This document shows, in pieces, positions 3,241-7,324 of a DNA stretch of 16,694 nucleotides. Source of the DNA: a virus (taxonomy: Duplodnaviria > Heunggongvirae > Uroviricota > Caudoviricetes); IMG/VR virus record IMGVR_UViG_2563366825_000009, positions 1 through 16,694 of that record. One strand, given 5' to 3'. The stretch's first letter is position 1. The number at the start of each line of letters is the position of its first letter. Below the pieces are notes generated by a model that did not search any database, was not told the origin of the DNA, and saw only the letters and a program-made list of their open reading frames with translations. Made by a program: the position numbers and the translations under genes.

Positions 3241-4750
3241 GCTGGCCTCCTGTCATGGCTTTCTTGCGCCCTTTGGCATAGGCAATGGTCTTTGACCTGA
3301 TGAAGTTGTACACTTCAACTGAGGTTTGCAGCGGCGCATTACTGAAGCCTTTAGGCCACACACCGAACTTCTCCTTGTAGGTATGAGCGCACCATCCGTC
3401 ACTCAGGGGTTTACCCGTCGCGTTGCGGTAATTCTGATACCCCTTGATCTCACTCCACCAACGCTGCTTTTCCTCGCGACTGTATTCGCGTTTCCCTTTG
3501 TTTACGCGAGAGAGTTTTCGATCGCGGTCTGTTGCCACATCATCGCCACCAAGAGGACGAAACCCACATTTGGGACACATGTGTACACCAGCAGGCTTCA
3601 TGAAGTGGCATTTGGGGCATTCTCTGGGAAGTTTCTCAGCCTTAACCTCGCCACCGCCAGCAGACGCTTTCATTCCGTCATTTTTACCCGGCAGTTCGTC
3701 ATACTCGATATCCTCGGGGAAGCCCAGCCGATGAACCGTACCAGAATGGTCAAAAATCAACGCACGTTTTTTACCTGGGGCTGTACGTAACGCTCTACCT
3801 ATGCACTGCAACCAACGGATTTCTGATTTTGTCGGACGGGCGTAGATCAGGCAGCGAACATCGCTGTCAAATCCCGCAACCAGTACACCAACGTTGACAA
3901 TTATTTTGGTCGCGCCCTCTTCAAAACGGCGAATGATGTCCTGTCGTTCATCATGGAGGGTATCTGCCGTCATCACCTCTGCACCAATACCGGCCTGTAA
4001 AAACTCACGGGTAACAAAATTCGCATGCGCAACATTCACGCAGAAGCAGATCGTCGGCAAATCCTCGCCATTCTCAAGCCAGTTGCGAACGATATCGCCA
4101 ACCAGATCCGAACTCCCCATGATGGATGCGAGCTGCTCCTCGTTGTAATCCCGTCCAAATACGGTGTTACTGGTTTTTACGCCAGCCAGATCAGGCATTG
4201 AGGGGGCAAAAAACTCGTAATCGCTCAGATCACCACGCTGAATAAGTTCACGAATCGTTGTAGGCTTGATCAGGCATTCGTAGTACTTCCCCATCCAGGC
4301 TGCGAACGGGGTGCCGGAAAGTCCAAGAACCCTGATGTCTCTGTCCCGGATAACCTCAAGTAACGCACGACGCTTCATGTGTGCTTCATCGATGATCAGC
4401 AGATCGATGTTGTCAGGAAACTCACGACGGATCAGCGTGTCGGCACTGGCAATCTGAATCAGTCGTGACGGGTCATAGTTAGGGTGATCACGCCATACAA
4501 AACTGATTTCTTCCCACGGCAAACCGTATTCGGTGAAACGTTCCGCTGTCTGGTTCAGCAGGATGGTGTACGGACAGACAAACATCACCCGCATACCACG
4601 TTCAACCATTCCGGCAGTGACGAATGCTGCAAGACCAGTTTTGCCAGAGCCAGTGGGTGCATACATCAGGTACGTGCGATGCTGTTTCCACTGGTGCCGC
4701 AGCTGGTTTAAACCGCGCTCCTGAGCAAAGTTTGGGGTGATTTTCAGCAT
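3230..4750 (-). CDS. Superfamily-2 (DEAD/DEAH-type) helicase, replication-associated, 506 aa
   Basis: Walker A motif APTGSGKT, DEAH-type motif LIIDEAHM, and a C-terminal CPKC...CPKC zinc ribbon. Confidence 0.8.
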   Translation of the reverse strand: MLKITPNFAQERGLNQLRHQWKQHRTYLMYAPTGSGKTGLAAFVTAGMVERGMRVMFVCPYTILLNQTAERFTEYGLPWEEISFVWRDHPNYDPSRLIQIASADTLIRREFPDNIDLLIIDEAHMKRRALLEVIRDRDIRVLGLSGTPFAAWMGKYYECLIKPTTIRELIQRGDLSDYEFFAPSMPDLAGVKTSNTVFGRDYNEEQLASIMGSSDLVGDIVRNWLENGEDLPTICFCVNVAHANFVTREFLQAGIGAEVMTADTLHDERQDIIRRFEEGATKIIVNVGVLVAGFDSDVRCLIYARPTKSEIRWLQCIGRALRTAPGKKRALIFDHSGTVHRLGFPEDIEYDELPGKNDGMKASAGGGEVKAEKLPRECPKCHFMKPAGVHMCPKCGFRPLGGDDVATDRDRKLSRVNKGKREYSREEKQRWWSEIKGYQNYRNATGKPLSDGWCAHTYKEKFGVWPKGFSNAPLQTSVEVYNFIRSKTIAYAKGRKKAMTGGQHAD

Positions 4751-5121
4751 GACGCCCCCTTGCCATTCGCCGGGATGATATCGATCCCAGCATCGCTATA
4801 ACTGGTCAGTTTCTTTGGCATTCGAAGCAACACAAAGCCTTCAGTGCCACGACGTGCCAATTCACGCAATTTCATGACTGAGCGGGGTCGCGGAGAGCTA
4901 CGATCGATCTCGATAGCCACACTCCCACCAGTTTTTGCTGTTGCGAGAATATCAACACGGAAATTTCTGCCATCGATTCTTACGGTGACATCTCTTGCCA
5001 CATGCATCCCCTGTGACTTAAGGATCGTTACAACATCAGCCAGAAAGCTGTAACGGTCCTCTGTTCTCAGTGGTACAGTGCTCAGTGTACGGATCAGTGT
5101 CGATTTTGTTGCTGCTGACAT
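4744..5121 (-). CDS. Hypothetical protein (125 aa), first gene of the replication module
   Basis: ORF with protein-like composition, overlapping the helicase start by 7 nt. No recognisable motif. Confidence 0.5.
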   Translation of the reverse strand: MSAATKSTLIRTLSTVPLRTEDRYSFLADVVTILKSQGMHVARDVTVRIDGRNFRVDILATAKTGGSVAIEIDRSSPRPRSVMKLRELARRGTEGFVLLRMPKKLTSYSDAGIDIIPANGKGASC

Positions 5122-5213
5122 AGTTTATCACTCAATAATTAGCTTGATAATCATTTCACCAGAAACTATCGCGCTCTTATACAGTGATCTACCTAACCTA
5201 TGTACCTGCCTTC

Positions 5214-5282
5214 TGGCCTAGGCCAAGGGATACAGGCCTTTCCAACGACTCCACCCCCCAACCCCCCTCCTCTCTTCCTTTC
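5214..5282. repeat. 12-bp perfect palindrome TGGCCTAGGCCA followed by a 34-nt homopyrimidine tract with two C6 runs (G-rich on the minus strand)
   Basis: Direct reading: palindrome at 5214-5225; 5249-5282 contains only 3 purines; CCCCCC at 5254-5259 and 5262-5267. Lies in the 208-bp gap between the cII-position gene and the replication module. Confidence 0.9.
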
Positions 5283-5329
5283 AGGAAATTAGTTGCATAC
5301 GTAACTATTTCTGACGCAACTAACCGCCA

Positions 5330-5623
5330 TCATGGTGTCGGGGGAAACTTCCGTACCGCTACTGGCGAAAGCATCCAGCCACGGCTGGCTCTCGCGTACT
5401 TCTGGACATACACCCGTAACCGGGTGTTGGCGCTCCGTCTTGCCCTGTTGCCCTTCCTGAACGATACAGGCTCCTTGTCCCACTCTTCCTGGTACACTCT
5501 CGCGTACTCTGCTGCAATTTTTACCCTAGTGGTCGGGTCTAGCTGTAACAATTGCTCCTGTATCCAGTCCCGATCAGCATCACAGTACTGCTCGGGCATA
5601 ACCGTTTTGATTTGCCTGTTCAC
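5330..5623 (-). CDS. Hypothetical protein (97 aa) in the cII position; not recognisably lambda CII
   Basis: GTG start at 5623 preceded by GGAGG with 5-nt spacing, 30 nt downstream of the cro stop. Basic C-terminal half; no similarity to lambda CII as recalled. Confidence 0.55.
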   Translation of the reverse strand: MNRQIKTVMPEQYCDADRDWIQEQLLQLDPTTRVKIAAEYARVYQEEWDKEPVSFRKGNRARRSANTRLRVYVQKYARASRGWMLSPVAVRKFPPTP

Positions 5624-5653
5624 TCACACCTCCGATGGGCTGTGTGTCCAGGA

Positions 5654-5857
5654 TTAATCATCGCCTCTTACGAACGCAGGGAACGGTCGAACCTCTTCCG
5701 CCTCAACTCTGCCGTCATCAAAGGTTTTGACGTAAATTTCACGTCCGACGAGAAGCGCTTTACTGATCGCGCTCTGCGCCACACCAAAGTCCTTAGCGGC
5801 TTTCTTCTGACCGAACCTGTATACGTAATCAGCCAGGGTCTCTTTTTTCATCGCCAT
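5654..5857 (-). CDS. cro: Cro repressor (lambda Cro family), 67 aa
   Basis: [60 protein letters not shown] parallels lambda Cro (..[53 protein letters not shown]). Start set at the ATG at 5857 behind AAGGAG rather than the track start at 5893. Divergent from cI. Confidence 0.85.
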
Positions 5858-5952
5858 AACTGACTCCTTCAAAATGCCCATATCATTACGCACAGTTATT
5901 AAAATGTCAACACCGCTGATATTTCAATAAATATAACCAAAGGTGATATGGT
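5858..5952. promoter_or_regulatory. OR-like operator region with divergent PR (minus strand) and PRM (plus strand) promoters
   Basis: Three about 17-bp sites spaced about 24 bp apart with lambda-type half-sites: 5932-5948 ATAACCAAAGGTGATAT, 5908-5924 CAACACCGCTGATATTT (cf. lambda OR2 TAACACCG...), and 5880-5897. Minus-strand PR: -35 TTGACA (5910-5905), 17-nt spacer, -10 AATGAT (5887-5882). Confidence 0.7.
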
Positions 5953-6666
5953 ATGAACATGAAAAAGAAACCGTTAACCCCTGAACAACTGGAAGATGCT
6001 AAGCGTCTGAAAAGTATTTTTAACGCGAAAAAGAAAGAGTTAGGCTTATCTCAGGAGTCATTAGCCTATGAATTAGGTGTTACTCAAAGCGCTGTTAATC
6101 AGCTAATGGCTGGCATCAACGCCATAAATGCCAGCCACGCAGCACAGCTTGCTAAGATACTGAATGTAAAGGTTGGTGATTTCAGTCCCAGCCTGGCAAA
6201 ATCTATTGCAGAAATGGCGCTCGCAATTGAAGAGCCATTAACTCGTGTCCCCGCTTACGAATATCCGTTACTCTCCTGCGTACAAGCTGGCGCATTCTCA
6301 ATGGATGATATTTCGTACACCGCAAAAGATGCGATTAAATGGATCTCCACCACCACAAAAGCCAGTGACAGGTCGTTCTGGCTGGAGGTCAAGGGGCATT
6401 CAATGACCGCACCGCAGGGTGGTAAACCCAGCTTCCCTGAAGGTATGCTGATACTCGTTGACCCTGAACGGGAAATCGAGGATGGCGATTTTTGCGTGGC
6501 CCGAATGAACGGCGATGAATTTACCTTCAAACGATTCATTCGTGAGAGCGGTAAAGCGTACCTGGAGCCGCTCAACCCACGATTCGAGATGATTGAGTGT
6601 AACGAAAACTGCCAGTTTGTCGGAAAGGTCATCAAGTCGCAGTGGAATGATGAGACTTTTGATTGA
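5953..6666 (+). CDS. cI: CI repressor (lambda CI family; HTH N-domain plus S24 peptidase-like C-domain), 237 aa
   Basis: Co-linear similarity to lambda CI over the full length, including the N-terminus [20 protein letters not shown], the hinge and the C-terminal domain ([12 protein letters not shown]...[18 protein letters not shown]). Same length as lambda CI. Confidence 0.95.
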
Positions 6667-6680
6667 GCTCACAGAGTGAT

Positions 6681-6720
6681 TTGACATCCTTCACGTCCTT
6701 TGGGGCGTGGAGGATGTCAA
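6681..6720 (+). other. Long hairpin / inverted repeat (15-bp stem with one G-T position, 10-nt loop) 15 nt after the cI stop
   Basis: TTGACATCCTTCACG (6681-6695) pairs with CGTGGAGGATGTCAA (6706-6720). No U-tract follows on either strand, so it is not a canonical intrinsic terminator. Confidence 0.6.
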
Positions 6721-6895
6721 AGCCATCAAGGGGGGTGAGAGGGGTAGCTAGATACTTAGAATCTCAATAATTAGCCTGTTAACTGTTTTTGTGTGCAATT
6801 TGCCATTCAACCACTGGCTTCAGGTGTTGTCATTCAGGCTGTGCATCATGTTTGAACTACCAAAGCCTTAGCCAGGGCCTAGGCTAGGTGTTGAT

Positions 6896-7198
6896 GTGGA
6901 TTCACACGGTAAAATGCCAGATGTGGTGCTACATTTTACTGCGAAAAACTGGCTGCTACTGGTTGAGTCTGTCACCAGTCATGGACCGGTTGATGGGAAG
7001 CGGCATGCTGAGCTTGCCAGGCTGTTTGCCGGATCAACAGCCGGACTTGTCTATGTGACCGCTTTTCCAAATCGCTCCATCATGGGACGATATCTTGGTG
7101 AAATCGCATGGGAAACAGAGGTATGGGTGGCTGATGCACCTTCTCATCTTATTCACTTCAACGGAGTGCGATTTCTTGGCCCCTACTCTACTGAATGA
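6896..7198 (+). CDS. Hypothetical protein (about 94-100 aa) in the rexAB position, followed by an intrinsic terminator
   Basis: ORF with GTG at 6896 (alternative ATG at 6914); in-frame stops lie at 6881 and 6869, so no longer frame exists upstream. Protein-like composition (..LLLVESVTSHGPVDGKRHAELARLFAG..). Function not recognised. Confidence 0.5.
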   Translation: MDSHGKMPDVVLHFTAKNWLLLVESVTSHGPVDGKRHAELARLFAGSTAGLVYVTAFPNRSIMGRYLGEIAWETEVWVADAPSHLIHFNGVRFLGPYSTE

Positions 7199-7218
7199 GT
7201 ACAGGACCAGATAAATAG

Positions 7219-7245
7219 CCCGGCCCATGCGCCGGGTTTTTCTTT
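7219..7245 (+). terminator. Rho-independent terminator after the rex-position ORF
   Basis: CCCGGC (7219-7224), loop CCATGC, GCCGGG (7231-7236), then TTTTTCTTT. Lies 21 nt after the stop at 7198. Confidence 0.6.
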
Positions 7246-7324
7246 GCATATCCCCTCCTGCTATCTGTCCCCTTCAAAAATAAATCACTTTAAAAATCAG
7301 TTAAGTAATATTTTTTTGCCCACG

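Follow-up and report, generated by a model that had tools for sequence, protein, structure and literature searches.

An open reading frame between cI and a pL-like promoter of a lambdoid phage as a probable remnant of an EcoGIII-type endonuclease gene

The immunity region and its cargo slot

The DNA analyzed here, a viral sequence of 16,694 nucleotides referred to below as the window, carries a lambdoid immunity region whose orientation is inverted relative to the usual lambda map. The cI-type repressor, labelled cI / LexA family protein in identical relatives, is encoded divergently from cro, which is annotated in identical relatives as a 204-bp gene equivalent to window 5654-5857. On the other side of cI lies a slot of variable content. 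The features of the region are as follows.

5654-5893, minus strand: Cro (PF09048), from the ORF listing, divergent from cI
5953-6666, plus strand: cI-type repressor, 237 aa (Pfam HTH_3 and Peptidase_S24)
6680-6721, no strand assigned: palindrome of 42 bp with a 19-bp stem, directly 3′ of cI, left edge of the cargo slot
6722-6881, no strand assigned: filler of 160 bp where the intact phages have 2143 bp (blastn)
6882-7198, plus strand: probable 3′ remnant of a BsuBI/PstI-family (EcoGIII-type) endonuclease gene, assigned by homology
6896-7198, plus strand: callable ORF of 100 aa, GTG start at 6896 and stop codon at 7196-7198
7217-7247, plus strand: predicted intrinsic terminator (pattern scan and fold), right edge of the slot
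7341-7369, plus strand: putative pL-like promoter, TTTACA-17-TATATT (promoter scan, 10/12 matches)

The pL-like site lies inside a block conserved in all relatives (alignment A1). An operator-like motif is shared in inverted orientation, with 13 of 15 positions matching, between this site (7362-7376) and the cI/cro intergenic region (5923-5937). Judged from these sequence features, the site at 7341-7369 may act as a promoter and the shared motif as an operator. The initial annotation had placed the ORF between cI and pL, and this placement holds, with cI upstream, Cro divergent and the pL-like site downstream. Transcription entering the slot likely originates from cI.

Roughly 600 bp 3′ of the pL-like promoter (7245-7855) contain neither a convincing ORF nor an N-like gene; a boxA-like sequence, TGCTCTTTAACAA, is present in this region at 7449-7461. 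A structured RNA was rejected for the leader (7376-7640), which folds no better than shuffled sequence (z = -0.66). The sole Rfam match at E <= 1 between 5600 and 8100 was a spurious plant miRNA on the palindrome.

Further downstream, an IS21-like element of the ISEc12 family (2581 bp, window 7862-10442; istA at 8055-9596, istB at 9608-10357) is inserted within the early-left transcription unit. It is bordered by a 7-bp target duplication, GTCAGTC, at 7855-7861 and 10443-10449. The empty site is present in two related loci (L020 and L004), and the insertion junction was found in no complete RefSeq E. coli genome. The element ends 26 bp upstream of an ORF of 183 aa (10469-11020), which matches no Pfam family and gave a weak, probably spurious PADLOC match to Csx23 (E = 0.0011). 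This ORF is followed by an AntA/AntB antirepressor gene (11043-11921).

The clean terminator that had been described after the ORF was recovered by pattern scan and folding. An 8-bp stem with six G-C pairs (7217-7238) is followed by TTTCTTTG, with a folding energy of -16.2 kcal/mol and z = -3.1. It had been read as the ORF's own; however, the stem and T-run are kept in relatives that carry other cargo in the slot. The sequence directly upstream of the terminator varies with the cargo, and about 400 bp downstream, including the pL-like promoter, are conserved. Thus, the terminator is a phage backbone element. It is predicted to close a transcription unit formed by cI and the cargo.

The slot holds a restriction-modification system in relatives L003 and L007, a 56-aa ORF together with hicAB on the opposite strand in L004 (3389-4263), and a 245-aa protein in L005 (3364-4101, E. 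coli STEC1585). The 245-aa protein has no match in Pfam or PADLOC and is a better candidate for an unknown factor expressed in the lysogen than the window ORF. This range of cargo supports the proposal, made before relatives were compared, that the slot between cI and pL is a hotspot for defence genes expressed in the lysogen. In lambda, rexAB lies between cI and pL, and sieB-type genes are further cargo expressed in the lysogen. The occupants of the window and of these phages are alike in position and in slot logic, being downstream of cI on the same strand. There is, however, no sequence relationship to RexA or RexB, Pfam finding only PF06616 in the window ORF, and unlike those systems the window occupant appears to be a dead remnant.

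Homology and missing domains of the open reading frame

The ORF had been described as 94 to 100 aa long, and both lengths can be read: 100 aa from the GTG at 6896 and 94 aa from an alternative ATG at 6914. As described, about 230 bp upstream are non-coding; the 229 bp between cI and the ORF (6667-6895) contain no ORF that runs into it. Two in-frame stops had been reported in this interval. The TAG at 6869-6871 is in frame, whereas the codon at 6881-6883 is AGG, the nearby TAG (6880-6882) being out of frame. The sequence AGGTG lies 5 nt upstream of the GTG start, and the reading frame is uninterrupted.

The product matches Pfam PF06616, the BsuBI/PstI restriction endonuclease domain, at profile positions 65-153 of 154 with E = 9.6e-39, so the features of the ORF are not due to chance. 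It also aligns to residues 226-322 of the 323-aa restriction endonuclease SdaI (E = 1.3e-34), whose structure represents the BsuBI/PstI family in PDB (2ixs), and to positions 219-316 of 317 in the PADLOC REase_II profile. In all profile and structure comparisons the fragment corresponds to the C-terminal part of an enzyme roughly threefold its length. Hence, the ORF, initially considered an uncharacterized gene with no assignable function, is a piece of a known enzyme. A homolog search with the 100-aa query gave, among its best 120 matches, only proteins of up to 174 aa, mostly from short contigs. The identical full-length enzyme is absent from these 120 matches, which are thus no guide to the natural length of the family; that length was taken from PDB, PADLOC and syntenic phages.

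Syntenic phages provide the parent gene. In phages phi346 and P13374, a 489-aa methylase and a 317-aa endonuclease are encoded directly 3′ of cI, followed by the same terminator. The methylase belongs to PF07669 (Eco57I-type m6A methyltransferase), and the endonuclease consists of a PF17728 HTH domain (7-143) and a PF06616 domain (155-307). The order cI, palindrome, methylase, endonuclease, terminator is retained in the Stx2a phages P13374, TL-2011c, PA2 and phi346. In P13374, the Stx2a phage of E. coli O104:H4, the endonuclease is ORF30; the protein is identical in phi346. The product of the window ORF is 100% identical to the last 100 residues (218-317) of this endonuclease. Over the 317 bp of shared endonuclease DNA a single base differs, at 7087, and the change is synonymous. 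By tblastn the homology begins at residue 214, and parent-gene homology starts 14 bp upstream of the ORF start codon, at an evident recombination junction.

Taken together, these data make it very likely that the ORF represents codons 218-317, the 3′ third, of an EcoGIII-type PstI-family endonuclease gene and is an inert remnant. The suggestion that it might be the leftover of a larger gene that had lost its 5′ part was thus borne out by the full gene and methylase in the same slot of the Stx2a phages, and the comparisons that had been proposed, with longer proteins sharing the C-terminal part, agree. The alternative idea that the ORF is a whole gene of roughly 100 aa, belonging to a family without a known function, had in its favor only the ORF itself and the tidy terminator. 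It is extremely improbable and is refuted by the fact that the product is identical to the C-terminal part of the complete enzyme in syntenic phages; the end-to-end alignment with the C-terminus of enzymes of 317-323 aa and the start of homology before the start codon also stand against it. The feature is already known and annotated. The ORF is labelled as a BsuBI/PstI family endonuclease in RefSeq (WP_016232233.1, PGAP, as an ordinary CDS) and in the record of phage PhiR12_3. It is an ordinary gene remnant and no new defence factor.

The intact system is presumably the one published as EcoGIII. PMC6602927 and PMC3893438, both citing Fang et al. 2012, describe EcoGIII as a PstI-like system carried by the O104:H4 Stx2 prophage; it methylates CTGCAG, cleaves at this site and guards against lambda-like phages. 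PMC6602927 also reports that the intact system changes host transcription. CTGCAG cleavage is reported only for the intact enzyme (PMC3893438, PMC6602927). The P13374 enzyme is presumably R.EcoGIII, a PstI isoschizomer, an assignment drawn from the shared O104:H4 Stx2 prophage. The window shares with the R.EcoGIII-type enzymes of P13374 and phi346 the last 100 residues, the position after cI, the terminator and the pL region, but lacks residues 1-217 and the whole M.EcoGIII-type methylase gene, and 160 bp of unrelated DNA stand in place of the missing parts.

The extent of the loss was analyzed by tblastn against the window. The PF17728 HTH recognition domain is absent in any frame, the 489-aa methylase gave no significant match in the whole window, and no endonuclease homology exists in the window beyond the remnant. 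The nuclease domain itself is incomplete, the first 64 of the 154 positions of PF06616 (about 41%) being missing. An AlphaFold model (pLDDT 83.6) of a 170-aa homolog that spans the whole nuclease domain and is 93% identical to the fragment superimposes on SdaI with a TMq of 0.87. In this model, helix 24-40 and strand 45-49 precede residue 71, which corresponds to the first residue of the window ORF. Judged from the model, the remnant lacks the first core helix and strand of the PD-(D/E)XK fold. It keeps the strands with the family-invariant PD and E (P8-D9 and E24 of the fragment). In SdaI the catalytic residues are D233, E248 and K251. SdaI, with 323 aa, has both domains complete, whereas the fragment corresponds to no more than the C-terminal 30% of SdaI. 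With the HTH domain, the first core helix and strand and the methylase all gone, the architecture suggests that the remnant is no working endonuclease and would be unable to restrict DNA.

A small defence or exclusion factor had initially been considered for this ORF. A translated fragment could still have acquired a new role in the lysogen, either in anti-restriction, by interfering with endonucleases of the PstI family, or as a small factor in exclusion. The open frame with its plausible Shine-Dalgarno sequence and GTG start, and the location in a slot expressed in the lysogen, are in line with this idea, and a 100-aa peptide might be made from the remnant. However, the sequence is identical to residues 218-317 of the parent enzyme, so there is no sign of adaptation, and a large part of the nuclease domain as well as the whole HTH domain is gone. 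Moreover, the fragment resembles C-terminal remnants in plainly decaying restriction-modification loci. At one of these (the P0059 locus, L011/L012), a 115-aa C-terminal PF06616 fragment lies near a shortened Eco57I-type methylase gene and intervening genes; it represents an independent event in an unrelated chromosomal context and, unlike the window remnant, not in a prophage immunity region. We consider a new role of the fragment very unlikely.

CTGCAG sites, recognized by PstI and EcoGIII, occur in the window at 2857, 8346 and 15154. Three sites in 16.7 kb is about the number expected by chance, and the window phage, which has lost the cognate methylase, shows no sign of CTGCAG avoidance.

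Junctions and distribution of the truncated allele

The boundaries of the replacement were determined by blastn. Window 5801-6721 corresponds to L003 3402-4321 and window 6882-7636 to L003 6465-7220; relative to the Stx2a phages phi346 and P13374, the flanks are 97.3% identical up to 6721 and 97.6% identical from 6882. The 2143 bp lost in between comprise a short spacer, the entire methylase gene and 637 bp from the start of the endonuclease gene. With 87.7% identity, the filler matches part of an integrative element at tRNA-Pro of E. coli 2013C-3033, namely the final ~29 bp of a Rha-family gene together with the DNA beyond it. The filler has no Rfam match, and neither strand folds better than shuffled sequence. 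A derivation of the filler from degraded restriction-modification DNA was ruled out by the tblastn result, in which endonuclease homology begins only at residue 214. A simple internal deletion was also rejected because of the 160 bp of foreign DNA at the junction. At either junction, possible microhomology extends over a few bases at most, which points to illegitimate recombination.

Of 5426 complete E. coli genomes, 134 have the whole of the segment missing from the window. The truncated arrangement was found in 5 of these 5426 genomes, in PhiR12_3, an isolated phage with host ECOR13, and in two IMG/VR contigs. A literature search on PhiR12_3 returned nothing relevant, and no exact match to the junction was obtained among genomes sampled at one per species. 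Six further contigs have exactly the two junctions but differ downstream, where three arrangements occur; one of these contigs, GCA_000407805.1 (KE136655.1), is 100% identical to window 3896-10198. Identical junctions in combination with three downstream arrangements indicate that the truncation arose once and was later spread by recombination. With about 99.9% identity among all copies, the allele is too young for selection on the fragment to be tested.

We also considered whether the truncation arose by faulty assembly or sequencing of an intact restriction-modification locus. A separate artefact-like class does exist, as some assemblies have the gene split by a single base inserted into a G-run. 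For the truncation, however, the chance of an artefact is negligible, as the same junctions occur in several independent complete genomes, in an isolated phage genome and in metagenome contigs. The artefact-like class is represented by L016 2349-3303 (GCA_052214815.1) and 12 similar places, which are complete methylase-endonuclease loci with one extra G. The additional base (GTGGGGC to GTGGGGGC) splits the endonuclease gene into parts of 216 and 100 aa and leaves the methylase intact. Either the extra G is a second way of inactivating the endonuclease, or it is a sequencing error in a homopolymer. Exactly the 100-aa product is on record for 173 contigs, a number that could be taken in favor of a new role of the fragment. 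This count overstates the truncation, because part of it consists of full-length loci in which the +1 frameshift gives the same ORF call, and these loci also count against reading it as support for such a role.

The left junction coincides with the end of the palindrome. The palindrome, of the form TTGACATCCTNCNCG(N8)CGNGNAGGATGTCAA, folds with -34.4 kcal/mol (z = -6.9) and has no U-tail. The bases at its end, ...GGAGGATGTCAA, coincide exactly with the right terminus of an IS605-family (TnpB) element, and 29 of its final 30 bases are identical to the right end of such an element on a plasmid (L014). One IS copy in L014 and two in the metagenome contig L010 end at ...GGAGGATGTCAA and then diverge. 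All phage cargo variants, including the truncation, likewise diverge at the base after ...GGAGGATGTCAA. The palindrome is also found at about 4280-4320 in L003 and L007, 3282-3321 in L005, 2001-2040 in L013-L015 and 120-183 in L010. Stand-alone copies on E. coli plasmids account for 97 of 269 places, and in plasmid L013 a group II intron is inserted within one copy. In L010, one such IS end directly adjoins a BsuBI/PstI-family endonuclease that was truncated independently. L010 is a public metagenome contig (ENA ERZ27257978 k141_134896), whose positions 1-65 carry an adapter-like sequence, GTCTCGTGGGCTCGGAGATGTGTATAAGAGACAG, presumably a Nextera sequencing adapter. These observations raise the idea that the palindrome is a site of recombination that swaps or deletes cargo in the immunity region of Stx-type phages, either single-stranded in the manner of a Y1 transposase or directed by the hairpin, with the endonuclease remnant as a by-product. 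We regard this as improbable.

Probable loss of the restriction-modification system

The data suggest the following origin for the remnant. An ancestor phage would have carried an operon of cI, palindrome, methylase, endonuclease and terminator. One illegitimate recombination event would then have put 160 bp of foreign DNA in the place of the methylase gene and of 637 bp at the 5′ end of the endonuclease gene. The remnant is probably transcribed as the tail of the cI message, which would end at the original terminator. This terminator may insulate the neighboring pL/OL region, and its insulating role may be the reason why the deletion stopped short of it.

The assignment removes a false lead, since there is no new small defence protein at 6896-7198. 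The RefSeq name of the 100-aa product, "BsuBI/PstI family type II restriction endonuclease", could mislead automated defence surveys. For the phages, the locus illustrates one route by which an EcoGIII-type system is lost from a prophage, namely a single replacement that spared the backbone terminator. Lysogens carrying the truncated allele should, via this system, neither methylate CTGCAG nor restrict incoming lambda-like phages.
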